From the NCBI GenBank assembly GCA_019338205.1, contig GCA_019338205.1_4761.1: 64,000 nt of DNA. One strand, written 5' to 3'. Source of the stretch: a phage. The notes beneath the pieces are model-generated. The model was given only the letters and a program-made list of their open reading frames with translations. It searched no databases and was not told the DNA's origin. Shown here piece after piece: positions 3,707 through 54,748 of this stretch (position 1 is its first letter; each line of letters starts with the position of its first letter). A program made the translations under genes and the position numbers.

Positions 3707-4138
3707 ATGGTTTATCCAACTCCTAGTAAGATTTACATTGACGATACTCATTTTCTTGTTGAAATTATGGGTATCAAGTTTAGCGGTAATGTTAAAATTG
3801 TAGAATGGGAATTACACGGTCAACCTGTAACCGATTATGACCATTATATCCCTTTCGGTGGCGATGATAACTTTGTTTCATTTGACCATGAAGGTTACAT
3901 GAACTTTGAGCAAGACGATGTACCTTTGTATCTGGCAATGATGGATATTCCTATTAAAACAGAATATACAGAGGGCGATTGCGATTGTTGCGGATACTAC
4001 AGCGTAACAGATATTAAGCTGCCATCCGGTAAAGAACTTTACAAAGAGGATCATTTCGGAAACTGCAATTTTCCTTGCGGCTGGCAAGAATTTTTCGAAC
4101 TTGTAGAGATTGAGCGAACTTATTTGAGGAAGGGATAA
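3707..4138 (+). CDS. hypothetical Cys-rich protein
   Basis: GAGGATTATATAATG initiation region; CDCCGYY and CNFPCGW motifs. Confidence 0.55.
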   Translation: MVYPTPSKIYIDDTHFLVEIMGIKFSGNVKIVEWELHGQPVTDYDHYIPFGGDDNFVSFDHEGYMNFEQDDVPLYLAMMDIPIKTEYTEGDCDCCGYYSVTDIKLPSGKELYKEDHFGNCNFPCGWQEFFELVEIERTYLRKG

Positions 4139-4950
4139 TGAAGAAAGCATTAGGTTTAATTCCCTATACTGGCAATAAGGAAAAGCTATTGCCAGGTGTT
4201 AGTAAGTATTTCCCTAAGCACTATAACCGCTTTGTTGATGCCTTTTGTGGCGGCTTGAGCGTGTCTCTGTACGTCGAAGGTGATGTGCTAGCTAATGACT
4301 ATGACCATCGTTTAATTGACGCTTACAAGGCCATTGATGCGTGTCCTGATCCGGTTTCTACAATCAAGCGGATTATTTCCGAGAATGGTTTGTCTCGTGA
4401 TGATAAAGATGCTTACATGGCATTCCGTAAGAAGTATAACGAGAATCCAGATCCGCTATCGCTGTTTGTGTTGATTCAGCATAGTTTTAGCAACATTAAC
4501 CGCCATAATCGCAAAGGTGAATTTAATGCTAACTTTGGTCGCCGGACTTTTAACGAAAACGCGGTAGAGCGTGTCCTGAATTTTAAAGAAGAAAACAAAG
4601 ATGGTCGAATCAATTTTACTTCTGGACGATATGACGAGATCGAGATCTTGCCAGGTGATTTCGTTTATTTGGACCCGCCGTACCTTATCACTTCTGCTGA
4701 ATATAATAAGTTCTGGAGTGACGAGGAAGAGATTAAATTCTATCGGTGGGTAGAATCTATTATGGCGCGTGGTTTTCAGTTTGGTATCAGTAATGTCACG
4801 CATCATAAGGGAAATGTAAATGATCATCTTCTTGACTTTATCAAGCGGAATGATTTAAACTGCGTCCTGTTGAATAAGACCTATTGCCTAGACCGTTCAG
4901 GCGGCAAGTCTTCTGATACGCAAGAAGTTTATGTAACTAACGTAGATTGA
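4138..4950 (+). CDS. dam: DNA N6-adenine methyltransferase (Dam)
   Basis: AdoMet motif DAFCGG and catalytic DPPY motif; size 270 aa like T4 Dam. Confidence 0.8.
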   Translation: MKKALGLIPYTGNKEKLLPGVSKYFPKHYNRFVDAFCGGLSVSLYVEGDVLANDYDHRLIDAYKAIDACPDPVSTIKRIISENGLSRDDKDAYMAFRKKYNENPDPLSLFVLIQHSFSNINRHNRKGEFNANFGRRTFNENAVERVLNFKEENKDGRINFTSGRYDEIEILPGDFVYLDPPYLITSAEYNKFWSDEEEIKFYRWVESIMARGFQFGISNVTHHKGNVNDHLLDFIKRNDLNCVLLNKTYCLDRSGGKSSDTQEVYVTNVD

Positions 4951-4958
4951 GGTATAAT

Positions 4959-5240
4959 ATGGTAGAAATTTTTGGTTTTGAAGGTTACAACTGTAAGTAT
5001 TGCCAGAATGCAAAGCGCCTTTGTGAATCGCGTAAGATCCCTTACATCTACATTCCGGTTAATGATGGTGTGGACGAAAACGGTCGCCCTGTAAAGATTG
5101 ATTCTATCATTGCCGATATTCAGGATCGCGCAGGGGTAGAAGTTATTGCCACCATGCCGCAGATTTTCTATGATGGTGATTATATTGGTGGCTTTGATGA
5201 GTTCCGATCCTTTGTAGTCAAAAACAAGATTCATGGTTAA
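4959..5240 (+). CDS. nrdC: NrdC-like thioredoxin/glutaredoxin
   Basis: CKYC redox motif near N-terminus, ~93 aa, position upstream of gene 49. Confidence 0.65.
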   Translation: MVEIFGFEGYNCKYCQNAKRLCESRKIPYIYIPVNDGVDENGRPVKIDSIIADIQDRAGVEVIATMPQIFYDGDYIGGFDEFRSFVVKNKIHG

Positions 5241-5264: not shown

Positions 5265-5738
5265 ATGTTACTGACTGCTAAGAGTGCTAAAGAGTACAAA
5301 CAAGAACTATTCGAAAAACAGGGGGGCATTTGCCCCCTTTGTCAATTGCCACTTTTTGAGGATATGAGCAAAAACCATCTTGACCACGACCACGATCTAG
5401 ATGGTAAAGGTCAAGGCCGCGTAAGAGGATTGCTTCATTCGTGTTGTAACCGCTTAGAAGGATCGTTGACCGGAGACTTTAAACGGTTTGGTGTTGGTGC
5501 TTTAGGTGCTGACTTCGTTGTTTGGGCTACAAACTATGTTAATTACATCAAAGGAGACTACACCAACAATCATTTACATCCTCAATATGCTGTTGATAAA
5601 GTAAAACGATTTTCACGCTTGACACGCGCGGAGATGGTTGCTATTATGGACGCAGAAGGTTTCGATTACTGCGACGCTGATACACGAGAAGAGATCACGA
5701 AGAAGTATAAGAAACAATTTATACAAAGATTAAGATAG
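5265..5738 (+). CDS. 49: recombination endonuclease VII (gp49)
   Basis: ICPLCQ zinc motif, HLDHDHDL, RGLLHSCCN, FSRLTRAEM closely match my recollection of T4 endo VII. Confidence 0.8.
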   Translation: MLLTAKSAKEYKQELFEKQGGICPLCQLPLFEDMSKNHLDHDHDLDGKGQGRVRGLLHSCCNRLEGSLTGDFKRFGVGALGADFVVWATNYVNYIKGDYTNNHLHPQYAVDKVKRFSRLTRAEMVAIMDAEGFDYCDADTREEITKKYKKQFIQRLR

Positions 5739-5741
5739 TAG

Positions 5742-5770
5742 TTGACAATAAGAAATGGGAGTAGTAAAAT
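5742..5770 (+). promoter_or_regulatory. sigma70-like early promoter with GGGAGTA/TACTCCC inverted repeat across -10
   Basis: TTGACA 5742-5747, 17 bp spacer, TAAAAT 5765-5770. Confidence 0.6.
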
Positions 5771-5801
5771 ACTCCCATCTAATCAAGAAGGAGAATCAAC
5801 A

Positions 5802-6074
5802 ATGCGTAAGATGTTTAAATCCGGTGTGGCCTATGTTTTTAAATCTGAGCAAGCACGTAAAGACTTCCTAGAGGATGACTACGAAGGATTGAAAGATACC
5901 TACGAAGTCATCAAGAATGGGTTTACTGTTCTTAAAGTGTCACCTATTGGTTATGTAAGTGAAATCTCGGTTGATGGGAAAACATATACCGCTAAAGACT
6001 TTGATCCGCGTTGGGAATTTATGCTTCTTCCGTGTGACCGCATTCTGTTTCGTGCTGTTCAATTAGTGAAATGA
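5802..6074 (+). CDS. hypothetical protein, GF(K/T)VL-module family
   Basis: 91 aa; module GFTVLKVSPIGYVSEISVDGKTYTAKDF. Confidence 0.55.
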   Translation: MRKMFKSGVAYVFKSEQARKDFLEDDYEGLKDTYEVIKNGFTVLKVSPIGYVSEISVDGKTYTAKDFDPRWEFMLLPCDRILFRAVQLVK

Positions 6075-6088
6075 TAGAGGATTATATT

Positions 6089-6649
6089 ATGGTACAGAAA
6101 ACATACAAAGTATATTCGGTTAAGTCACCCAATGACGCTGTTTTTGAACGAGGTCGTTACTATACTTTCCGTAGTGCAGAAACAGTCGCAGAATTTATCA
6201 AACGATGTCCGCAACATAATAAGTTCTTGTATGACGTGCTTTGTAACGGCTTTAAAGTTCTCACTGTTGATGCGATGGGGCGTGTGTATCTGGTAGAAAC
6301 TCATGAGTATGAAGGTGCATCTGTTCTGATTGCTGCAAACGAGCGAAAATACTTTAAACGCATCACTAAAAAGCAGTTTGAAGAAATGAAACCAATTAAG
6401 AAAGAAGAATCTCTGGAAGATCTGATTAACTTGTTTGCGAAGTCTTCTTTGGTATCATTGACGCTGGAAGATTTTAGCTTTGATAATCAGCTATACTTTA
6501 AAAATGCCGATGACTTGAAAGATTTTCTGATTGAGAATAAACCTAAGCTAGAAACCTATATCAAAGGTGAGATTAAGCGCATGGAACATCAAGCAAAATA
6601 TAGCGCAGATAAAGTAGCTGAACTGAAAGAGATCCAAAGGTCACTTTAA
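6089..6649 (+). CDS. hypothetical protein, GF(K/T)VL-module family
   Basis: GAGGATTATATTATG; GFKVLTVDAMGRV and ERKYFKRITKK shared with next gene. Confidence 0.6.
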   Translation: MVQKTYKVYSVKSPNDAVFERGRYYTFRSAETVAEFIKRCPQHNKFLYDVLCNGFKVLTVDAMGRVYLVETHEYEGASVLIAANERKYFKRITKKQFEEMKPIKKEESLEDLINLFAKSSLVSLTLEDFSFDNQLYFKNADDLKDFLIENKPKLETYIKGEIKRMEHQAKYSADKVAELKEIQRSL

Positions 6650-6652
6650 CGC

Positions 6653-6681
6653 TTGACATGATGAAACGGGAGTAGTAAGAT
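6653..6681 (+). promoter_or_regulatory. sigma70-like early promoter with GGGAGTA/TACTCCC inverted repeat
   Basis: TTGACA 6653-6658, 17 bp spacer, TAAGAT 6676-6681. Confidence 0.6.
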
Positions 6682-6712
6682 ACTCCCATCTAAACAACGA
6701 GAGGATTATATT

Positions 6713-7891
6713 ATGGCTAAATTCTTTGAAGGGCATTACTACGCATTCCGTGAAGGCGGTAAAGATGAGTTTCTAGACTTTTCTCGCTATTCAATTACTC
6801 TGACCGATACTTCGCGCCGTGGTCATATTCGGGTTGCTGAAATTGTAGAAAAGGGCTTTAAAGTATTAGAAAAAGATGACCACGGTCATGTTGTTACTAT
6901 TGAAGCTGGAGATGTAGTTTATTCCGCTGAGGATATCGTTTATTATTGGGCTACTATGATTATGCACAATGAGCGCAAATACTTTAAACGCATCTCAAAA
7001 GAGGCATACGAAGCGATGAACAAGAAAGAGGATGCAATGCCGACTTACTTTGAAAAAGGTAAATGTTATTCGTTTACCCCGGAAGGTTTGCAAGAATTTA
7101 AGCGATTCTGGGGAGAGCATGATCCAGAGCACAAAGAAGCCATGAAACTTGTTGATTTTGTCGAATATGGCTTTTTAGTTGAAGAAGAATTGCACGGATC
7201 GGCTACCATGATCACCGCGAAAGGTGAAACTGTTAAGGCGGATCGTTTTTGTGACCAATGGAATTGCTTGTTTGACGGTAGCGAATTTGAATACTTCGCG
7301 GAAATCACGCGAGTTGAATATGTCCGTATGCAAGAGCGTGGTCAGAGATTTAAAGTAGGCGAACGATACAAGCCAAATCCACATAATTTGCCTCATTGGT
7401 TTAATACTGAAACCGTATCCAGTCATGTTATTGAAATTATTAAAACGCTGGAACATGGATTTAAGGTAACTAAAGTAGATTCTTTCGGAAGTGTTGACGC
7501 TGTTGAAGTTGATGGTGTAGAATATACTCCTAAATCTTTCGGGCTTTGCTGGTATCACCTGATCAGCAATGATGAACGTTATTACTTTGTTGAACTGCCA
7601 TCTGAACCGGAAGAAGCACTAGAAGATCATGATCATCTGTCTGAACTGGTTAAGCTGTTTGGTGATCTGCCGGATGGTGTAGGGGTGGCGGTAATGGGTG
7701 AAGGTGCTGTTATCCGAAACCTGAAAGACTTTAAAAAGTTCTTGATTGACATGCTGCCTAAACTTGATGATAATCTCGATAAAGATATTCAGAATCGCAA
7801 AGAAATTGTTAAAGATACTGAAAAAGAGATCGAAGAGATTCGAGCAATTCGCCAGAAGGTGAAAGCAGTAAAGAAAAAAGTTAGTTCTTGA
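6713..7891 (+). CDS. hypothetical protein with repeated GF(K/T)V modules
   Basis: 392 aa; internal repeats GFKVLEKDDHGHV, GFKVTKVDSFGSV; ERKYFKRISK motif. Confidence 0.6.
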   Translation: MAKFFEGHYYAFREGGKDEFLDFSRYSITLTDTSRRGHIRVAEIVEKGFKVLEKDDHGHVVTIEAGDVVYSAEDIVYYWATMIMHNERKYFKRISKEAYEAMNKKEDAMPTYFEKGKCYSFTPEGLQEFKRFWGEHDPEHKEAMKLVDFVEYGFLVEEELHGSATMITAKGETVKADRFCDQWNCLFDGSEFEYFAEITRVEYVRMQERGQRFKVGERYKPNPHNLPHWFNTETVSSHVIEIIKTLEHGFKVTKVDSFGSVDAVEVDGVEYTPKSFGLCWYHLISNDERYYFVELPSEPEEALEDHDHLSELVKLFGDLPDGVGVAVMGEGAVIRNLKDFKKFLIDMLPKLDDNLDKDIQNRKEIVKDTEKEIEEIRAIRQKVKAVKKKVSS

Positions 7892-7915
7892 CATGCGAAG
7901 GGAGTATGCTATAAT
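7888..7915 (+). promoter_or_regulatory. sigma70-like early promoter with GGGAGTA/TACTCCC inverted repeat
   Basis: TTGACA 7888-7893, TATAAT 7910-7915. Confidence 0.6.
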
Positions 7916-7945
7916 ACTCCCACTTAACAACGAGAGGATTATATT

Positions 7946-8440
7946 ATGTGGGTACAAGATGTTTGGTATACTGTAACTAAAGAAAACCTTGACGCATTCA
8001 GCGACCAATCTTGCGCTAATAGCTCAATTGCTGATATTCTTGAAGATGTGTTTGGTGGTGTAGATAAAATTCGTTTTAAAGTTGTTGTTAATTCTATGGG
8101 GTGTGTAAAAGACCTATATACCGATGATAAAGACCTTGATCTTAAACTTCATCTTCGTATTGATAATGCAAGTCTAGGTTATTGGTTTGAAGATAACGAG
8201 TATGAATACTTCACACCAGCAATTAAAGTTTTTGCAACTAAACTGGAAGCTGTACTAAATCTCCGACCAATTAATGTTGACGGTTACATTATCAAAAATA
8301 TTCAGGAGTGGGATTCATATCTAGATCAGATTATCCGAAATAGTAAGCAGGAAGCCGCTAATAAGAAGCGACAAGAGATCAAACAACTGAAAGCTGAACT
8401 GGAAGCGGCGGAAAAAGAATTAGCAGAACTGGTAAAATAA
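7946..8440 (+). CDS. hypothetical protein with C-terminal coiled coil
   Basis: GAGGATTATATTATG; 164 aa. Confidence 0.55.
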   Translation: MWVQDVWYTVTKENLDAFSDQSCANSSIADILEDVFGGVDKIRFKVVVNSMGCVKDLYTDDKDLDLKLHLRIDNASLGYWFEDNEYEYFTPAIKVFATKLEAVLNLRPINVDGYIIKNIQEWDSYLDQIIRNSKQEAANKKRQEIKQLKAELEAAEKELAELVK

Positions 8441-8449
8441 CTATCAACG

Positions 8450-8471
8450 AGCGGGAGAAATCCCGCTTTTT
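8450..8471 (+). terminator. intrinsic terminator hairpin AGCGGGAGAAATCCCGCT + T-run
   Basis: stem-loop followed by TTTTT. Confidence 0.55.
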
Positions 8472-10352: not shown

Positions 10353-10384
10353 AGCCGATCCGAAAGGGTCGGCTTTTTCGTTTT
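10353..10384 (+). terminator. intrinsic terminator
   Basis: AGCCGATCCGAAAGGGTCGGCT hairpin + TTTTTCGTTTT. Confidence 0.7.
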
Positions 10385-10390
10385 GGGGTG

Positions 10391-10418
10391 TTGACAACCT
10401 GATTAGCTAATGTATAAT
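10391..10418 (+). promoter_or_regulatory. sigma70-like early promoter
   Basis: TTGACA 10391-10396, TATAAT 10413-10418. Confidence 0.55.
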
Positions 10419-11538: not shown

Positions 11539-11567
11539 TTGACGGGGATCGCGAGATCCCCTATACT
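11539..11567 (+). promoter_or_regulatory. sigma70-like promoter with spacer palindrome GGGGATCGCGAGATCCCC
   Basis: TTGACG 11539-11544, 17 bp spacer, TATACT 11562-11567. Confidence 0.55.
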
Positions 11568-12265: not shown

Positions 12266-12793
12266 ATGAAATGGGAAGTTGGTAAAACTTACAAGATTGA
12301 ATGCGAAGCGTCGAAAGCCGAACTAACTAAATTTTCGTCGTCTATTAACAGATGTATTGTTGACTTGTTGGCTGGTCGCCCGTTTAGGGTAGAAGACCTT
12401 GACGATGATGGTGATGTTAGAGAAATTACTGTTATTGGTAGTAATTTCGACTCTATGACGTTAAAAGAATCCCCTATTGGCTGTTCCGGCGTGTGGTTTT
12501 GGTCGGGTGAGCGTCGTTTCTTTACCGAAGTTACTATTGAACCTAAGATTCCAGATTCGGAAGAAAAAGAAGAAGACCTAACTTTAGAACGCCTGGGTCT
12601 GCTTATGGAAGCCTACGACATTCAGTTGATCGATAAGATGGGGTTACATAATAGCATTGCCAAAATTACTACCCTAGAAGGTATTAAGAGCGTACTGGAT
12701 GGTATGCCTAGCCGGATCGGTGCTATCCGAGAATACAAACAAACGCGCGACCGTATGATCCAATTAGAATCACGTATCAAAAATGAGAGATGA
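12266..12793 (+). CDS. hypothetical protein, MKWEVGKTY family paralog 1
   Basis: N-terminal MKWEVGKTYKIE; C-terminal helical tail. Confidence 0.55.
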   Translation: MKWEVGKTYKIECEASKAELTKFSSSINRCIVDLLAGRPFRVEDLDDDGDVREITVIGSNFDSMTLKESPIGCSGVWFWSGERRFFTEVTIEPKIPDSEEKEEDLTLERLGLLMEAYDIQLIDKMGLHNSIAKITTLEGIKSVLDGMPSRIGAIREYKQTRDRMIQLESRIKNER

Positions 12794-12797
12794 TATT

Positions 12798-13262
12798 ATG
12801 AAATGGGAAGTTGGTAAAACCTATGCGTGGAAAGATGTAAAAGATGCAAACCAATTTTTTAAATGGTATGATGTTGATTATTTGAAATATCTGAGATTAC
12901 CGTTTAAAGTTGCGTCGGTTGATGCGAAAAAAGGATACGTGCGGTCTGTATATCTTCATGATGGAACTTATATGAGTTCAACCGATGTAGGTCTATCTTG
13001 TTGGTTTCTGGATCATGACCGTAGCAGATTTGAAGAAATTATTATTCCAGAAGAATCTAAATTAATTGATCTTCTCAAGTTGGCGATGGATAATTATAAA
13101 ATCCGCTTTGAATGCAAATCACATGCGGCTATCGGTGCTAACGCATTGCGTCATATCTCCAGTTTTGAAGAGTTGAAAGATTTTCTTGACAAAATGCCGG
13201 AAAGAGTGCAAGCTATACAGGAAGCAGAGAAAGCATTAAACGAACTTGATAAAATCGGTTAA
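12798..13262 (+). CDS. hypothetical protein, MKWEVGKTY family paralog 2
   Basis: N-terminal MKWEVGKTYAWKD. Confidence 0.55.
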   Translation: MKWEVGKTYAWKDVKDANQFFKWYDVDYLKYLRLPFKVASVDAKKGYVRSVYLHDGTYMSSTDVGLSCWFLDHDRSRFEEIIIPEESKLIDLLKLAMDNYKIRFECKSHAAIGANALRHISSFEELKDFLDKMPERVQAIQEAEKALNELDKIG

Positions 13263-13274
13263 GGGGAATATATT

Positions 13275-14099
13275 ATGAAATGGGAAATTGGTAAAACTTA
13301 CACCTGGAAAGACGAAAACGCTAAAACTGAGTTTATTACTAACGGAGAAGGTGTTCTTTCTCCACTTAACAGCGATATTAGTGCAGCTATTGGTGACAAG
13401 CCATTTACCATCATCGAGATCGAGGGTAACGGTTGGATTGATGCAATAGAGCTAGACGGTGTTTATCATACGGCGAAAACTGCTACAGGAAAAGACATTT
13501 GGACTGCAACATATTTCTTTAGTCCATTCGATAGAAAATTCTTTCGTGAAGTTGAAGAAGTTCCCCAGAAATGGGAAGTTGGTAAAACTTATACTTGGAA
13601 AGATGTGAATGCTATGACAGACTTCTGCCATTATGCTGAAAACGCATCTAACCTTAATTATGTTATTGCACGAGCAATAAATTATAGACCTTTTACTGTT
13701 AAAAATGTTCGTCCATGTGGGCAAATTGATGTAATTGAAATTGATGGTAAAGACCATACTCTAATGAGCGCAACCGAAGATAGAGACCATAAAGGAACTA
13801 GCTGGTTTATTGATTCTGATAGAAAATTCTTTCGTGAAGTAGAAGAATTGGAAGTTATAACCACTGATTCTAAGATCGTTGGACAGTTGAAACGTCTGTT
13901 TAGTAGTCGTTACGGCCTGACAATGGTTAAATTTGGCGAAGCAAATGAAGGTAAAACCTTTGAACGTTTCGATGATTTCATTGCGGCACTTGACAAGATG
14001 GATGAAATCATGCAAGATCGCCAGAAGATTAAAGACCTTCAAGAAGACATTAAACGTCGTGAAGTTGAATTTTTGATTGGTAAAGAGCGAGGTTGGTAA
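13275..14099 (+). CDS. hypothetical protein, tandem double MKWE(I/V)GKTY domain
   Basis: MKWEIGKTYTWKD at N-terminus and QKWEVGKTYTWKD internally; repeated DRKFFREVEE. Confidence 0.55.
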   Translation: MKWEIGKTYTWKDENAKTEFITNGEGVLSPLNSDISAAIGDKPFTIIEIEGNGWIDAIELDGVYHTAKTATGKDIWTATYFFSPFDRKFFREVEEVPQKWEVGKTYTWKDVNAMTDFCHYAENASNLNYVIARAINYRPFTVKNVRPCGQIDVIEIDGKDHTLMSATEDRDHKGTSWFIDSDRKFFREVEELEVITTDSKIVGQLKRLFSSRYGLTMVKFGEANEGKTFERFDDFIAALDKMDEIMQDRQKIKDLQEDIKRREVEFLIGKERGW

Positions 14100-14100
14100 T

Positions 14101-14583
14101 ATGTTTGTTGCTGGCGTGACCTATCAGTGGAAAGATAAGAAAACGAGAGAAGATTTTGCAAACTTTAGCGTTGCAAATGATGCAATAGCAGAGTTTATAG
14201 GCGACCGTCCATTTAAAGTTATCGCATTTGATCACCATGCATCGGATGTTGATTATGTTTCTGCGATTGAAATTGATGGCACGGTATACACCTGCTGCAA
14301 TGTTGATGATGTACGGGAATACGCGCACAACTGGTTTTTGCAATCAGAAGAACGTCATTTTAAAGTGGTATCGGCAGAACTGACCACTGATGCAATGTTG
14401 GAACAATTTTTCAACAACTACGAAGTTTCTGTACGTCGATACGGTGAAGAGGAAGTATTTAAAATTGATGACTATAATCAGTTTAAACGAGTATTCGCCA
14501 CTAAGATCCAACGTGATATTGAACGCGAGAAGCGCATTAAGGAACTGGAAGAAGAACTAGAAAGATTAAAGGCTGAGAAATGA
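14101..14583 (+). CDS. hypothetical protein, diverged member of same family
   Basis: VTYQWKDKKTREDF..GDRPFKV..AIEIDGTVYT; coiled-coil C-terminus. Confidence 0.5.
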   Translation: MFVAGVTYQWKDKKTREDFANFSVANDAIAEFIGDRPFKVIAFDHHASDVDYVSAIEIDGTVYTCCNVDDVREYAHNWFLQSEERHFKVVSAELTTDAMLEQFFNNYEVSVRRYGEEEVFKIDDYNQFKRVFATKIQRDIEREKRIKELEEELERLKAEK

Positions 14584-23098: not shown

Positions 23099-23785
23099 AT
23101 GAAACTGACTAAAGAAACCATTGCTACCCTGAAAAACTTTTCCGCTATTAACCCAGGTATCATCCTGAAAAAAGGAAACGTCCTGATCACCAAAAACATG
23201 ACAAACGTTGTATATGGTGAAGCGACTCTGAATCAAGAACTGGAACACGAAATTGGGATCTATGATCTTAACTCTTTCTTGGGTATTCTGAATCTGGTAG
23301 GCGATGAAGCAGATATTACGGTTGATGACCGCACCGGAAACATTCGTGTGTCTAATGATCGTCTGAAAATTAATTATCCTGGTGCTAGTGCTGCCGCCAT
23401 CGTATCACCGAAAGGCCGAGTTACTCCACCTGCAAGCGATGTAGATTACGAACTGAGCAACGACGATCTGAAACAGCTTATGAAAATGAGCAATCAGCTT
23501 AAAGTGGATCGCCTTGAATTTCTTCCGATTGATGGTCGTCTGATGATCAAAGGCTGGGAAGAGATTGACAAAAATAATCCGAATGAGATGTTTTGTCTTG
23601 ATATGGGCGAATATACCGGAACCGCAGACTTCCATTTCTTTATTCGTAAAGATAACATGAAACTGGTTGCTACTGACTTCGGCGATTACAAACTTAGCTT
23701 CACTCGCCGTAAGGCTGTATGGCTGGCAAGTGAAACCGTATCTTATATGATCGCGTGTGACCTTGACTCCAGCTACACCGACTAA
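23099..23785 (+). CDS. 45: sliding clamp gp45
   Basis: N-terminus MKLTKETIATLKNFSAINPGI resembles T4 gp45; 228 aa. Confidence 0.8.
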   Translation: MKLTKETIATLKNFSAINPGIILKKGNVLITKNMTNVVYGEATLNQELEHEIGIYDLNSFLGILNLVGDEADITVDDRTGNIRVSNDRLKINYPGASAAAIVSPKGRVTPPASDVDYELSNDDLKQLMKMSNQLKVDRLEFLPIDGRLMIKGWEEIDKNNPNEMFCLDMGEYTGTADFHFFIRKDNMKLVATDFGDYKLSFTRRKAVWLASETVSYMIACDLDSSYTD

Positions 23786-23796
23786 TATAATGATTG

Positions 23797-23823
23797 TGGG
23801 GAGTGTAAATACTCCCCGTTTTA
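23797..23823 (+). terminator. hairpin GGGGAGTGTAAATACTCCCC, attenuator/terminator-like
   Basis: perfect 7 bp stem followed by GTTTTA; same stem sequence as the promoter-embedded repeats. Confidence 0.4.
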
Positions 23824-23850: not shown

Positions 23851-24825
23851 ATGCTGAGTGTTAATGAAAATGAGTTTCAGTGGGAACAGAAATACCGTCC
23901 GAAATCAATTTCTGAATGTATTCTGCCGGAAGCAGATAAAAAGATCTTCGCGCAGATTGTTAAGCAAGGCCGAATCCCTTCTATGATCCTGCATAGCCCA
24001 TCGCCAGGTACTGGTAAAACAACCGTTGCTAAGGCGCTTTGCGAAGATGTGGGTGTTGATTATCTGTTTGTTAACGGCGCAGATTGTAAGATTGATTTTA
24101 TCCGCGATGAGATTACACGCTTTGCGCAGAGTGTATCACTCGATGAAGAAAAAAGAGAAAAAGGCAAAGTTGTTATTATCGATGAGTATGACCGAGCGGG
24201 GCTAGCTGATGCTCAAAGACACTTGCGTAGTTTCTCTGAGGCATACTCAAACAACGTGACATTCATTATCACAGCAAACGATCTAGAAGGTATTATCCCA
24301 GCGTTACGATCTCGATTTGACCCCATCACGTTTGGATCTCCGACTAAAGATGATCAGCTTCGCATGATGAAAGAAATGATCGTCCGGTGTAAAGCAATTC
24401 TTGATAAAGAAGGTGTACCAGTAGAAGAAATGCGCGTATTAGCGGAATTGGTTAAGCAGAACTTCCCAGACTTCCGGCGCGTAATGAAACTTTTGGACCG
24501 CTACGCTAAACACGGTAAAATTGATGCTGGCGTATTGAGTATGGTTATCGAAAGTAGCAATACCGAAGTAACCGATGTGGTGGAAGCACTTAAAACTAAA
24601 CAGTTTGCTAATGTGCGTAAACTTGCACCACGCTATACCAATACATACGCTCAATTTGTCAAGAAACTTTATAATGAGTTGTATACTCAAGTTAAGCCAG
24701 CTTCTATTATTCGTCTGACCGAGATTATCGGTGAAAATAATCAGATGTTTGCGCACGCGGCTGATAAAGAGATTCACATTGTCTTTTTGTTAATGCAATT
24801 AATGGTTGAATTGGAGTTCGTATAA
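23851..24825 (+). CDS. 44: clamp loader large subunit gp44 (AAA+)
   Basis: EQKYRP, HSPSPGTGKTTVAKALC, IIDEYDR motifs. Confidence 0.85.
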   Translation: MLSVNENEFQWEQKYRPKSISECILPEADKKIFAQIVKQGRIPSMILHSPSPGTGKTTVAKALCEDVGVDYLFVNGADCKIDFIRDEITRFAQSVSLDEEKREKGKVVIIDEYDRAGLADAQRHLRSFSEAYSNNVTFIITANDLEGIIPALRSRFDPITFGSPTKDDQLRMMKEMIVRCKAILDKEGVPVEEMRVLAELVKQNFPDFRRVMKLLDRYAKHGKIDAGVLSMVIESSNTEVTDVVEALKTKQFANVRKLAPRYTNTYAQFVKKLYNELYTQVKPASIIRLTEIIGENNQMFAHAADKEIHIVFLLMQLMVELEFV

Positions 24826-25767: not shown

Positions 25768-25788
25768 GATACTGATGGGATAGGGGTA

Positions 25789-25817
25789 TTGACAAACTAA
25801 GTCGATTCCCCTATAAT
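25789..25817 (+). promoter_or_regulatory. sigma70-like promoter upstream of DNA polymerase gene
   Basis: TTGACA 25789-25794, 17 bp spacer, TATAAT 25812-25817; imperfect inverted repeat GGGGTATTGAC/GTCGATTCCCC. Confidence 0.55.
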
Positions 25818-34838: not shown

Positions 34839-34867
34839 TTGACACTACTCTATAATGGTTTTATTAT
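34839..34867 (+). promoter_or_regulatory. candidate sigma70 promoter
   Basis: TTGACA 34839-34844, 17 bp spacer, TATTAT 34862-34867. Confidence 0.35.
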
Positions 34868-34897
34868 GCCTCCCGTCGAAAGATTGGAGGCTTTTTT
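34868..34897 (+). terminator. terminator-like hairpin that sequesters the downstream Shine-Dalgarno
   Basis: GCCTCC..GGAGGC stem + TTTTTT; GGAGG of 3' arm is the only RBS for ATG 34901. Confidence 0.55.
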
Positions 34898-34900
34898 ATT

Positions 34901-35404
34901 ATGCAATTTACACCAGAAGAACTTAACATCATTGATGAAGTGATGAACTCTAAAGAAAATATCGATATGTCGATCCTTAATGGATTGATCGAAAAGACTG
35001 AGCGGTTAGTGCATCATGAAGCCTTGTATCGCGGTGTGAGCAAAAGAGAAGGCCGTAAGCTGGATACCTTAATTGTTGGTGATTCTTTCGTTGTAGAGCG
35101 TCCTATGAGCTTTACGCCACTGCAATCAACAGCAGAGGACTTTGCAACCGATGTTTATGCAACAGGAAAGATTATTGCAATAAAACCTACCAAGCCTTGC
35201 ATGAATTATTACGAACATGCTATTGACCGAGTGGTGTCTAAAGAGTATGACAATCCGACTACTCGACTGTCTTTGTATGCTATGTTGGCAGATGAGCGCG
35301 AGTGCATATACAAGACAGGGACGACCATGATCCTTGATGAGATCGAGGAAGTTTACGCGTGTAATGGCGATCTGATAGAGATTTACAAATTTTCTTTAAT
35401 TTAA
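34901..35404 (+). CDS. candidate ADP-ribosyltransferase (ModA/ModB-like)
   Basis: R-S-ExE-like arrangement (LYRG, STAED, ADEREC) and synteny upstream of dda; weak. Confidence 0.3.
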   Translation: MQFTPEELNIIDEVMNSKENIDMSILNGLIEKTERLVHHEALYRGVSKREGRKLDTLIVGDSFVVERPMSFTPLQSTAEDFATDVYATGKIIAIKPTKPCMNYYEHAIDRVVSKEYDNPTTRLSLYAMLADERECIYKTGTTMILDEIEEVYACNGDLIEIYKFSLI

Positions 35405-41297: not shown

Positions 41298-41325
41298 TTG
41301 ACATACAAGGGAGATTCTCTATAAT
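41298..41325 (+). promoter_or_regulatory. sigma70-like promoter inside a terminator-like hairpin
   Basis: TTGACA 41298-41303, TATAAT 41320-41325; flanked by AAGGGAGA/TCTCCCTT + TTTTC. Confidence 0.5.
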
Positions 41326-41359
41326 GGGAGTCTCCCTTTTCTTTTATGAGGATTTAATA

Positions 41360-41666: not shown

Positions 41667-41695
41667 TTGACACTGGACCGGGGATATATCATAAT
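41667..41695 (+). promoter_or_regulatory. sigma70-like promoter with GGGGATAT/ATGTCCCC inverted repeat around -10
   Basis: TTGACA 41667-41672. Confidence 0.5.
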
Positions 41696-41725
41696 GTCCC
41701 CATCGAAAACAAAAGGTTGACTTAT

Positions 41726-48680: not shown

Positions 48681-48690
48681 CTGATTATTA

Positions 48691-48721
48691 AGCCGATCCT
48701 TGTGGTCGGCTTTTTTATTTT
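48691..48721 (+). terminator. intrinsic terminator
   Basis: AGCCGATCCTTGTGGTCGGCT hairpin + TTTTTTATTTT. Confidence 0.75.
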
Positions 48722-48730
48722 AAAAAGTTG

Positions 48731-48759
48731 TTGACTTCACGAATCCAGCCTCGCATAAT
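48731..48759 (+). promoter_or_regulatory. sigma70-like promoter
   Basis: TTGACT 48731-48736, 17 bp spacer, CATAAT. Confidence 0.5.
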
Positions 48760-48790
48760 ACACACATACCAAACAAAAGGAGAATCAAAG

Positions 48791-49063
48791 ATGAGCAACG
48801 AAAACAGCAAAGTGTTAGCAATTGCAAATAAAGTAGGTTACTGGAAATGCTGGGATGATATGGAGAAATTAGGCGGTCGCTATCTCGATAACTTAGAGTT
48901 GCATTATTGCCAAGCGCGTAATGCAGAAGTTGCGGGAGTAGCAATCGAAGATATTCCGTCTAAGGTCTTCGGATTCTCTAAAGATGATACTTTAGAATAT
49001 GTTTTCAAGGCTGTTATGGATCAAGCATGGGAAGACGCAGAGACACGCGCTCTTGATTGGTGA
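48791..49063 (+). CDS. hypothetical protein
   Basis: 90 aa; AAGGAGAATCAAAGATG. Confidence 0.5.
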   Translation: MSNENSKVLAIANKVGYWKCWDDMEKLGGRYLDNLELHYCQARNAEVAGVAIEDIPSKVFGFSKDDTLEYVFKAVMDQAWEDAETRALDW

Positions 49064-49067
49064 TAAT

Positions 49068-49229
49068 ATGAACTGGTATAAAATTTGGAAAAATCAGGTG
49101 GAGGCTTATCTAGGGTATAAGCCCACCGACGAAGAATTACTTGAAGCAATGTACGAAGACGGACTAAATCCGAAAGTAGCCGCGCAAGAATACGCGGAAT
49201 GGGTGAAGGTCGAAAATAATTTAAAATAG
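49068..49229 (+). CDS. hypothetical small protein
   Basis: 53 aa ORF. Confidence 0.35.
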   Translation: MNWYKIWKNQVEAYLGYKPTDEELLEAMYEDGLNPKVAAQEYAEWVKVENNLK

Positions 49230-49232
49230 TTG

Positions 49233-49261
49233 TTGACGTAAAGAAACGGGAGTAGTAATAT
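49233..49261 (+). promoter_or_regulatory. sigma70-like promoter with GGGAGTA/TACTCCC inverted repeat
   Basis: TTGACG 49233-49238, 17 bp spacer, TAATAT 49256-49261. Confidence 0.55.
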
Positions 49262-49293
49262 ACTCCCATACCAAACGAAAGAAGGAGAATCAC

Positions 49294-49506
49294 ATGAAAT
49301 CTAGTGAGCAAGTAGTGACTGAATTTATGAGCTACGAAGGAAACCGCATCTTTGGACGTTCTCAAGTTCGCGAGATCGTAGAAGAAGTTGCGGGAGAGTT
49401 TGCGGAATCTGGTCACGTTATCACGCAAGAACGTAAAGAAGAAGCAGTAAGCCAGATCATGGCTATGCAGAAAATGCGTATTAATGCACGAGCGGGTAAA
49501 AATTAA
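49294..49506 (+). CDS. hypothetical protein
   Basis: 70 aa; AAGGAGAATCACATG. Confidence 0.5.
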   Translation: MKSSEQVVTEFMSYEGNRIFGRSQVREIVEEVAGEFAESGHVITQERKEEAVSQIMAMQKMRINARAGKN

Positions 49507-49516
49507 AAAATAGTTG

Positions 49517-49545
49517 TTGACAGGGGATCGGCGATCCCCTATACT
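49517..49545 (+). promoter_or_regulatory. sigma70-like promoter with spacer palindrome GGGGATCGGCGATCCCC
   Basis: TTGACA 49517-49522, 17 bp spacer, TATACT 49540-49545. Confidence 0.6.
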
Positions 49546-49576
49546 AAACTCATCAAGACAACGAAGGAGAATCAAA

Positions 49577-49732
49577 ATGAAACATACTCACAAATTAATG
49601 GTTAAATTTTAAGGCGCTAAAGGATATGAACGTTACGGTGTATTCTTCTCTGAGGATGATGCATGGAATGCTGGTCTGGCAACGTTCGCCGAGCACAACA
49701 ACATTGAAGACTTTACTGTAGAAGAAATTTAA
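49577..49732 (+). pseudogene. small ORF interrupted by an in-frame TAA (candidate pseudogene or readthrough)
   Basis: Promoter + AAGGAGAATCAAAATG, 11 codons, TAA at 49610-49612, then 39 in-frame sense codons to TAA 49730-49732. Confidence 0.35.
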
Positions 49733-49739
49733 AAAGTAG

Positions 49740-49768
49740 TTGACACCGGATTAAGGGAGTAGTAAGAT
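49740..49768 (+). promoter_or_regulatory. sigma70-like promoter with GGGAGTA/TACTCCC inverted repeat
   Basis: TTGACA 49740-49745, 17 bp spacer, TAAGAT 49763-49768. Confidence 0.6.
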
Positions 49769-49802
49769 ACTCCCATCAAGACAAAACACTGAGGAATATA
49801 TT

Positions 49803-50561
49803 ATGAAAAACATTATCGCTGCTATCGTTCTTTCTGCTACTGCTTTCGGTGCTAACGCTGCGTCCTTTGATTGCGCTAAAGCTACTACCAAATCAGAGAA
49901 GTTTATTTGTGCTAATGAGTCTATCTCCGCACTGGACTCTAAACTTCATGAAGTGTATGTTAAGGCTGTTAAGATTGATCCGTCTCTGAAACAAGAGCAA
50001 CGAAACTGGAATAAAACTGTTCGTGATACAATGATCAATATCGGGCAGATTCAGCCACTGGAGGCTGTATACAACGCTCAAATCCAAAACTTGATGAATG
50101 TATTACCTAAAGAAGAAACCGCGTCAGAAAGCGATTCAGAGACTTCTGCGAAGGTTGAAGAAGAACAACCGAAACAGGAAGCAAAAGTGGTAGAAGAACC
50201 GAAGGTCGAAACTTTTACCTATCAATGCACTGTTCGCTATGAGTGGAGTATTAAAGATGGAATTTCTACCAAAATTAAAGAAGCGCCACTGTATGCCAAA
50301 TATGGAAATCAACCAGGAGATCTTAAAGTAACCATTAAAAATGGGAAGATGGTTGATTTTGTATACATTGATGAATACAACGTACACAAAGCAAACGTAC
50401 AAGAAACCGTTATGACTAAAGGCGGGTTTTATAAGAATGTTGGCAAGAAAGATCTATATGAATACTCCGTTTTCGAACCAAACGACGGAACTATTCGATT
50501 TGAAAAACGTCATCCTACATTCGGTGGAGCAATTGATGTAGATCAATACGTTTGCAAGTAA
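49803..50561 (+). CDS. secreted protein with LprI-like architecture (DUF1311-like N-domain + MliC-like C-domain)
   Basis: Signal peptide MKNIIAAIVLSATAFGANA; FDCAKATTKSEKFIC..LDSKLHEVY..QRNWNKTVRD; acidic linker; C-domain with two Cys. Confidence 0.55.
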   Translation: MKNIIAAIVLSATAFGANAASFDCAKATTKSEKFICANESISALDSKLHEVYVKAVKIDPSLKQEQRNWNKTVRDTMINIGQIQPLEAVYNAQIQNLMNVLPKEETASESDSETSAKVEEEQPKQEAKVVEEPKVETFTYQCTVRYEWSIKDGISTKIKEAPLYAKYGNQPGDLKVTIKNGKMVDFVYIDEYNVHKANVQETVMTKGGFYKNVGKKDLYEYSVFEPNDGTIRFEKRHPTFGGAIDVDQYVCK

Positions 50562-53841: not shown

Positions 53842-54144
53842 TTAACGGTTGCTCAAGCGTCTATAACGAAGATGGGAAATACCCCTGTTTGTAGTTACCG
53901 TGATCGTTACTCCCTGCGGCACAATACAAGAATGGATCTGTCCCCAATCATGACCCTTATGACTTCCAGACACACAGAAGCCATGCAAAAGCAATTCTGA
54001 GTCACCACCGCCACCACCAGAAGAACTAGCACCAAATGAAACCGTACCGAAAGCGTCGGCTGTCCAACCGTTAGGAATATCAAACCATCCCTGATTCGCT
54101 TTACCGGCTTTATTGTCTAAAACTCCATACACCCAATATCCCAT
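53842..54144 (-). CDS. glycine-rich small protein, tandem paralog C
   Basis: MGYWV..GWFDIPNGW..GGGGG; AGGAG RBS; TAATG coupling to upstream paralog. Confidence 0.6.
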   Translation of the reverse strand: MGYWVYGVLDNKAGKANQGWFDIPNGWTADAFGTVSFGASSSGGGGGDSELLLHGFCVSGSHKGHDWGQIHSCIVPQGVTITVTTNRGISHLRYRRLSNR

Positions 54145-54449
54145 TAATGCATTCTCCTAAATTGGAAGTGGTTTAAACTTCCTTTACCAATACTAAAACT
54201 GACAGTAGCGCCAGCACCAACTAAAGAACTTGCTCCCCAACTTCCTGCATTACCAGCGTGATGACCTGATTCGAGAGTACCGTTTACATATAATTCTGCG
54301 TCCAGGTCACCACCGCCACCAACGGCTTCGGCATGAACAGACACAATACCGCATGAATCAGCCACCCAACCATTAGGGATACCAAACCACCCACCATTAG
54401 CATAAATGCTAATAGCATTAGCCATTCTTCCCGCAACCCATCCAGCCAT
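54144..54449 (-). CDS. glycine-rich small protein, tandem paralog B
   Basis: MAGWV..GWFGIPNGW..GGGG; GGAG RBS. Confidence 0.6.
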   Translation of the reverse strand: MAGWVAGRMANAISIYANGGWFGIPNGWVADSCGIVSVHAEAVGGGGDLDAELYVNGTLESGHHAGNAGSWGASSLVGAGATVSFSIGKGSLNHFQFRRMH

Positions 54450-54451
54450 AA

Positions 54452-54748
54452 TTAAAACTCCATAAATTTAAAGTATTCAATACCACCGCCACCACCATGA
54501 CCAAAGGTGACAGTACATCCAGCAGGAACAAACGCATTAACCGTAAATCCCCAATCCCCACCACCACGACGACGCGCGGCGACCACACCGTCAACGGAAA
54601 TATGAATATCACCCCAAACATCACGAGCGGTATGCCGCAAAACGGCAACACCAGCACGACCGGGGACATATCCATTAGGAATGTCAAATACATGCCATTT
54701 TACAGCATCGATTTTAGTTCCTTGTTCATTACTTACCCAATAGCCCAT
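54452..54748 (-). CDS. glycine-rich small protein, tandem paralog A
   Basis: MGYWV..FDIPNGY..GGG..GGGGG; AAGGA RBS after hairpin. Confidence 0.6.
   Translation of the reverse strand: MGYWVSNEQGTKIDAVKWHVFDIPNGYVPGRAGVAVLRHTARDVWGDIHISVDGVVAARRRGGGDWGFTVNAFVPAGCTVTFGHGGGGGIEYFKFMEF

Follow-up and report, generated by a model that had tools for sequence, protein, structure and literature searches.

Five promoters with a stem-loop over the -10 element in an RB49-like phage genome are most probably PeSLs

Introduction

At position 5742 of the 64,000-nucleotide stretch of phage DNA analyzed here (the window), a predicted promoter carries its -10 element within a perfect inverted repeat, and the same arrangement recurs at four further sites. 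Why should a promoter and a hairpin be fused in this way, and is the fusion peculiar to this genome? Genome comparison showed that many deposited Krischvirus genomes match the window along its length at 96-98% identity, and that the window holds no content that is unique with respect to these deposited relatives. Judged from this comparison, the window is from an RB49-like T4-type coliphage of the genus Krischvirus.

In this phage group, promoter-early stem-loop elements (PeSLs) have been described that combine a sigma-70-like early promoter, an AT-rich upstream region and a stem-loop of a G-run and a C-run, with a Shine-Dalgarno sequence and a start codon directly downstream (Arbiol et al. 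2010, PMC2839356). About 100 are known, 52 in Phi1 and 51 in RB49, and they fall into five subclasses by stem position, the commonest having the stem between -35 and -10 or overlapping -10 (PMC2839356). PeSLs lie preferentially in hyperplastic regions and upstream of ORFans, they bound insertions, deletions and replacements between closely related phages, and mini-circle formation has been described for them (PMC2839356). Promoter activity in vivo has been published for PeSL206/205 and PeSL193/192, and termination for the stem of PeSL211/210 (PMC2839356). An earlier note on the window, made from the letters alone, had likened the five sites to these elements. Here we examine how far the likeness goes and what the stem might do.

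Results

Layout of the five elements

The heptamer GGGAGTA occurs 16 times on the two strands of the window, compared with 3.3 expected occurrences (standard deviation 1.8, maximum 8 in 100 shuffles). Ten of these 16 occurrences pair up into five perfect GGGAGTA-N6-TACTCCC palindromes at 5757-5776, 6668-6687, 7900-7921, 49248-49267 and 49755-49774. A -35 hexamer TTGAC(A/G) precedes each palindrome by 6-9 nt, and the -10 hexamer, of the form TAnnnT, is formed by loop sequence and ends on the T that opens the 3' arm. Spacers measure 16-17 bp and 9-12 of the 12 consensus hexamer positions are matched. All five sites are intergenic with an ATG 31-35 nt downstream. Their stems pair perfectly over 7-9 bp around the GGGAGTA/TACTCCC core, and the RNA hairpins fold with -11.9 to -13.8 kcal/mol (z = -3.4 to -4.4 compared with shuffled sequences). 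The first element, 5742-5778, reads TTGACA ATAAGAAAT GGGAGTA GTAAAA TACTCCC AT. The five elements, read as PeSLs of the -10-straddling subclass, are:

5742-5778, + strand: -35 TTGACA at 5742-5747; stem ATGGGAGTA (5755-5763) / TACTCCCAT (5770-5778); -10 TAAAAT at 5765-5770; predicted +1 at A5777; ATG at 5802.
6653-6687, + strand: -35 at 6653-6658; stem 6668-6674 / 6681-6687; -10 TAAGAT at 6676-6681; ATG at 6713, opening an Frd.2-like gene of 392 aa.
7888-7921, + strand: -35 TTGACA; 16-bp spacer; TG-extended TATAAT; 8-bp stem GGGAGTAT/ATACTCCC at 7900-7907 / 7914-7921; ATG at 7946.
49233-49267, + strand: -35 TTGACG; stem 49248-49254 / 49261-49267; -10 TAATAT; ATG at 49294.
49740-49774, + strand: -35 TTGACA; stem 49755-49761 / 49768-49774; -10 TAAGAT; ATG at 49803, opening an LprI/DUF1311-like gene.

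The inverted repeats that the earlier note had placed at or around the -10 are thus confirmed, with the -10 in the loop. The shared TTGACA holds for four promoters and fails at 49233, and the uniform 17-bp spacer breaks down at 7888. At the latter site the TGA stop codon of the gene at 6713-7891 lies inside the -35 hexamer (7888-7893), so that coding and regulatory sequence overlap.

Upstream of the elements at 5742, 7888, 49233 and 49740, 20-25 nt are rich in A and T (for example AAATTTAAAAAGTAG); the tract is weaker at 6653 (CACTTTAACGC). Altogether the copies have about 50-70 bp in common, comprising the AT-rich tract, the -35, the stem with the -10, a CAT start motif and a leader, the leader with its Shine-Dalgarno sequence being one of two types. 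Seven nt after the -10, promoters with and without a hairpin show a conserved C-rich stretch at -3 to -1 and then CAT, in line with the RB49 early-promoter logo, which reportedly matches 5'-end mapping (PMC1524935). The 3' arm, made up of the T of the -10 and ACTCCC, ends at about -1, just before the CAT.

The first element follows the gp49 (EndoVII) gene, whose stop codon lies 3 nt before its -35. Further upstream, GEC-3S has, between dam and nrdC, a gene for an HNH homing endonuclease (2203-2958, compared with window 4138-5240) that the window lacks; this indel seems unconnected with PeSLs.

Orthologs in the RB49 group

All five sites have counterparts, base for base in alignment, in intergenic regions of RB49, Phi1, JSE, ECD7 and other phages, and in the alignments with RB49, Phi1 and JSE each site shows 0-6 differences per ~110 nt. 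An identical GGGAGTA-GTAAGA-TACTCCC element lies between ORF205 and ORF204 of Phi1; the Phi1 206/205 and 212/210 intergenic regions hold spacer-class elements. In the GEC-3S record the orthologs of the five sites are annotated as promoters. At the five sites we find what characterizes a PeSL: the promoter, the AT-rich tract, the stem, the intergenic position, the ORFan context, the coincidence with indel boundaries and orthology to RB49-group elements.

Taken together, we put the probability at about 0.88 that the five sites are PeSLs of an RB49-like T4-type coliphage, of the subclass with the stem overlapping the -10, and that they are explained as promoter, read-through hairpin and recombination linker in one. 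The resemblance proposed in the earlier note is therefore orthology to RB49, Phi1 and JSE sites that match the published definition (PMC2839356). The finding is real, was correctly read and has been known for this phage group since 2010.

To survey the motif more widely, IMG/VR was scanned for GGGAGTA-N6-TACTCCC. At least 120 stretches matched, nearly all of them by chance as only 14 bases are specified, so the scan is uninformative on the wider distribution; among the matches listed, only L053, L064 and L102 were Krischvirus-like contigs. Within the literature library searched, neither transcriptomics of Krischvirus phages nor newer PeSL work came up, the one hit being an unrelated cyanophage paper.

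Composite elements elsewhere in the window

Further elements combine a promoter with a hairpin, several of them with other stems or with the stem in another position:

1840-1868, + strand: spacer-class PeSL; stem AGGGGAT / ATCCCCT wholly between -35 and -10.
2517-2553, + strand: -10-straddling PeSL with the unrelated stem ATGCGGTTAT / ATGACCGCAT; TATAAT in the loop.
11539-11567, + strand: spacer-class PeSL; TTGACG; GGGGATC gcga GATCCCC; TATACT.
23798-23817, + strand: terminator-like hairpin GGGGAGT gtaaat ACTCCCC followed by GTTTT, between gp45 and the gene at 23851.
25781-25817, + strand: PeSL upstream of gene 43 (DNA polymerase); TAGGGG / CCCCTA straddles the -35 (25781-25813).
41298-41346, + strand: composite of promoter and intrinsic-terminator-like PeSL; -35 at 41298-41303; 13-bp stem at 41307-41338 with two G.U pairs and a loop that is exactly TATAAT; TTCTTTT after the stem; -21.3 kcal/mol.
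41667-41701, + strand: -10-straddling PeSL with another stem, GGGGATAT / ATGTCCCC, containing one G.T wobble.
49517-49545, + strand: spacer-class PeSL, AGGGGATC ggc GATCCCCT; start of a 208-bp cassette (49517-49724).

Those at 1840, 2517, 11539, 25781-25813, 41667 and 49517 were absent from the list that we started from. At 41298 the hairpin followed by a T-run had been recognized correctly. The hairpin after gp45, which had been taken for a free copy of the same stem, turned out to be a related one that is shifted by one base; it begins shortly after gp45, whose stop is at 23785, leaving 12 nt between them. The element before gene 43 is in line with the report that g43 is bordered by PeSLs (PMC2839356).

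In total, 12 hairpins in the window overlap a promoter. Sixteen perfect hairpins are both GC-rich and intergenic: eight of them overlap a consensus promoter, one more (23798) comes shortly after such a promoter, and the majority of the remaining ones have T-runs behind them and resemble ordinary terminators. The whole window gave no match to any Rfam covariance model at gathering thresholds.

A few neighboring arrangements deserve mention in their own right. What may be called an 'uncompacted' form of the same logic is seen at 10353-10418 and 48690-48759. There an ordinary terminator, made of a hairpin and a T-run, stands 17-19 nt ahead of a consensus promoter that has no hairpin but shares its CAT start and leader types with the PeSLs. 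At 34839-34900 a consensus promoter (TTGACA-17-TATTAT) has GCCTCC...GGAGGC and TTTTTT in its own leader, with the likely Shine-Dalgarno GGAGG within the 3' arm and the ATG at 34901; by its sequence this may be an attenuator within the leader or else a member of the PeSL subclass with the 'stem downstream of -10'. The hairpin at 8450 has a T-run, yet the terminator scan did not call it.

Exchange between cassettes in related genomes

With about 50-70 bp in common, the copies provide dispersed direct repeats for the efficient homologous recombination system of the phage. Comparison of related genomes shows unequal exchange between copies, by which cassettes of a promoter plus ORF are deleted, inserted or swapped, and indicates gene conversion that homogenizes the copies.

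The clearest case is KFS-EC, which lacks exactly window 5742-6652, so that gp49 is followed directly by the 392-aa gene. Its single PeSL is a chimera with the spacer of the 5742 type and the loop and leader of the 6653 type, which places the crossover inside the shared GGGAGTAGTAA. Similarly, 48788-49267 is missing from ECD7 and from the IMG/VR contig L102, the crossover having taken place in the leader GGAGAATCA that the copies share. A third crossover, in the AT-rich/-35 part, accounts for the absence of the 208-bp cassette 49517-49724 from MIZ4, GEC-3S and Sf20; the right end of this loss is at the 49740 element. Insertions adjoin the elements as well: GEC-3S, W115 and MIZ4 carry an insert of ~510 bp at 49211-49219, next to the PeSL at 49233, and Phi1 has the ORFan 263.1, a gene reported to be unique to this phage (PMC2839356), inserted at 49496-49516. 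The observation that would have told against PeSLs, namely repeats missing from the shuffled gene boundaries of relatives, was thus not made; several cassette-sized indels end inside the elements.

The three mapped crossovers are spread over three separate parts of the cassette, a pattern better explained by general homologous recombination between short repeats than by a stem-specific recombinase, which was raised as a speculation in the 2010 paper (PMC2839356). Such exchanges are occasional: across 5600-8000, all but one (KFS-EC) of 59 relatives are collinear through all three PeSLs, which implies that the copies are mostly stable.

In Brandy (L130; 2146 and 3057) the 39-nt PeSL cores at the 5742 and 6653 sites are identical, compared with about 6 differing positions between these copies, 911 bp apart, in other phages including the window. 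Read from sequence, this indicates gene conversion between the copies. In Brandy, JK32, Makalu_001 and FL20 homology stops 22 nt into the gene after the PeSL at 7888 (window 7968 onward), a pattern that suggests an allele replacement with its left edge just after this cassette.

The genes downstream do not themselves explain the elements. Most are annotated as hypothetical in all relatives, and Pfam returned a hit above cut-off for one of six, the LprI-like gene at 49803, with sub-threshold hits otherwise. Genes 5802-6074, 6071-6649 and 6713-7891 form a related group, to which genes at 12266-14583 also belong; this is the Frd.2 family, labeled 'goF mRNA metabolism modulator' in RefSeq. The clusters of paralogous genes that the earlier note placed downstream of the promoters are accordingly confirmed only at 5742 and 6653, in one of the two loci; for the genes after 7888, 49233 and 49740 no paralogs were found in the window. 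The two clusters at 5802-7891 and 12266-14583 comprise seven genes of one diverged paralogous family (28-35% identity), and two BLAST segments per pair reveal internal repeats in some of its members. Another set of three tandem paralogous genes of ~100 aa (31-42% identity) lies on the - strand at 53842-54748, just upstream of the long tail-fibre genes.

The stem and the transcript

Each element is predicted to hold a near-consensus sigma-70 promoter that would be read early by unmodified host RNA polymerase and would drive one to three small, mostly uncharacterized genes. Transcription probably starts at the A that directly follows TACTCCC. With its 3' arm ending at -1, the stem would be absent from the mRNA of the cassette itself; only sense RNA arriving by read-through from upstream could form the hairpin. 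In such RNA the hairpin most likely serves to attenuate, pause or bound the upstream transcript, which leaves the cassette insulated; the position is read from the sequence and the effect on the RNA is predicted.

Could the hairpins instead be canonical Rho-independent terminators that belong to the upstream genes and only happen to overlap the promoter that follows? The GC-rich, stable stems would fit this, the 5742 ortholog is annotated as an ARNOLD terminator in the G37-3 record, and the 41298 element with its 13-bp stem and T-run is a terminator in form. Moreover, lacZ expression was lowered by a spacer-class PeSL stem to a similar extent as by rrnB T1 (PMC2839356). At the five sites, however, the + strand continues after the hairpin with ATCTAATC, ATCTAAAC, ACTTAACA, ATACCAAA and ATCAAGAC, none of which contains a U-tract, and the terminator scan made no + strand call there, whereas it called typical terminators nearby at 10353 and 48690. 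U-tracts are present at 41298 and, weakly, at 23798. Lacking the U-tract, canonical intrinsic termination is not supported for the five sites, and we consider this account improbable. The proposal of the earlier note that the hairpins terminate transcripts accordingly finds no backing in the sequence of the GGGAGTA sites.

The published terminator assay was done on the stem-loop of PeSL211/210 (PMC2839356). Phi1 is without ORF211, and its region upstream of ORF210, taken here to be the assayed PeSL211/210, has the spacer-class GGGGATCGGTGATCCCC and not a -10-straddling stem. By sequence, the assay thus appears to have used another, spacer-class stem and not one of the GGGAGTA subclass. Given this and the missing U-tract, attenuation or 3'-end definition by the -10-straddling stems is something that we infer.

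Two other proposals for the hairpin were rejected. A terminator on the minus strand fails as a general explanation, since only two of the five sites were flagged by the scan and all neighboring genes are on the + strand. A cruciform as target of EndoVII, encoded by gp49 just upstream of 5742, is disfavored as a 7-bp arm is short for extrusion and G.T wobbles occur on one strand only. On the - strand, a T-rich run after the hairpins 5753-5780 and 49246-49269 is the complement of the A-rich promoter spacer.

What the stem is recognized as, single strand or duplex, can be approached through its variants, which were tabulated by script from stem classes that lie in different registers relative to the promoter. 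The -10-straddling layout occurs with unrelated or compensated stems, namely GGGAGTA, GGGTGTAT/ATACACCC, GGGGATAT/ATATCCCC, ATGCGGTTAT and the 13-bp stem, and GGGAGTAT/ATACTCCC compared with GGGTGTAT/ATACACCC differs on both sides of the stem. All variants that arise by a single transition (~5-7 events) give a G.T wobble on the + strand and none an A.C mismatch; the variants are TGCTCCC in Phi1, ECD7 and GEC-3S, ATGCTCCC in L064, TACTCTC in Phi1 and the window stems at 2517, 41667 and 41298. The excess of G.U wobbles on the + strand fits a role in sense RNA, and the varied self-complementary stems with their one-strand wobbles favor, suggestively only, single-strand pairing over duplex recognition. 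Pairing is not an absolute constraint, as transversions break the stem in two orthologs, ECD7 at the 6653 site and GEC-3S at the 49233 site.

These variants bear on the idea that the palindrome serves as an operator or recognition site in the DNA, bound over the -10 by a dimeric phage or host protein that shuts off a subset of early promoters or starts targeted recombination. Its appeal lies in the 7-bp arms, identical in the five window copies and in one copy in the Phi1 HPR and nearly invariant among orthologs while spacers and loops vary, and in their position over the -10, which is typical for repressor operators; a DNA-binding protein that is specific for the stem was considered speculatively by Arbiol et al. 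(PMC2839356). Yet other stems occupy the same position with complementarity kept and sequence changed, including the two-sided change, and the one-strand wobbles matter for a single strand and not for recognition of a duplex. The three mapped crossovers point to no fixed site in the stem, and no candidate recombinase or repressor was identified. An operator is therefore highly unlikely.

We think it equally far-fetched that the hairpin is functionless, the five copies being recent duplicates of one palindrome-bearing promoter that gene conversion keeps alike. The copies do share spacer, loop and leader, far beyond the stem, gene conversion was seen in Brandy and disrupted stems are tolerated in the two orthologs just named. 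This would leave unexplained why promoters of other sequence have stems at the same or neighboring positions, as do the 12 promoter-overlapping hairpins of the window and half of its intergenic GC-rich perfect hairpins, and why substitutions that keep the pairing outnumber those that break it.

Returning to the PeSL reading, with its hairpin in read-through RNA, one extension can be formulated. The U-tract-less stems that straddle the -10 and end at -1 might act by a non-canonical, strand-specific RNA mechanism that is coupled base for base to re-initiation; they may, for example, define or protect the 3' ends of upstream early transcripts or serve as a processing site. Such a mechanism would be distinct from the terminator activity of the spacer-class stems, and at present we regard it as doubtful.

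Discussion

PeSLs are a worked example of how accessory genes are shuffled in large lytic phages, in that one repeated regulatory cassette would serve as promoter, insulator and recombination linker at once. Their confirmation in the window adds conceptually nothing new. The newer Krischvirus genomes, with an exact cassette deletion that leaves a chimera, with gene conversion and with crossovers spread over the cassette, support the published model.

Between the PeSLs of Phi1 and RB49 and the elements of the window we found no essential differences. The phages are of the same genus, orthologous positions are 91-98% identical, and both sets share the promoter, the AT-rich tract, the stem over the -10, the Shine-Dalgarno sequence with ATG, the hyperplastic location and the association with indels. 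What goes beyond the 2010 paper are the examples from the later genomes KFS-EC, ECD7, MIZ4, Sf20 and Brandy, and the crossovers in three parts of the cassette.

More distant systems resemble PeSLs in part. The PeSL-like elements of T4/PST and KVP40/nt-1 (PMC4122927) and the elements of the T-even internal-protein locus (Repoila et al. 1994, as cited in PMC2839356) are likewise composites of promoter and terminator that flank variable genes, and like PeSLs they are proposed points of exchange. They have T4-type early promoters and weaker, AT-richer stems, and are not homologues of the RB49-group elements (PMC2839356). Intrinsic terminators, too, form a GC-rich stem-loop where the sense transcript reaches the end of a gene, as do the hairpins with T-runs at 41298 and 23798, whereas the five GGGAGTA hairpins have no U-tract and contain a promoter. 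Finally, the 'morons' of lambdoid phages (Hendrix et al. 2000, discussed in PMC2839356) are likewise single genes with their own promoter and terminator between resident genes. Their regulatory sequences do not recur as linkers and are not considered to bring about the mobility, whereas in the RB49 group the repeated promoter/stem-loop is itself the substrate of exchange.
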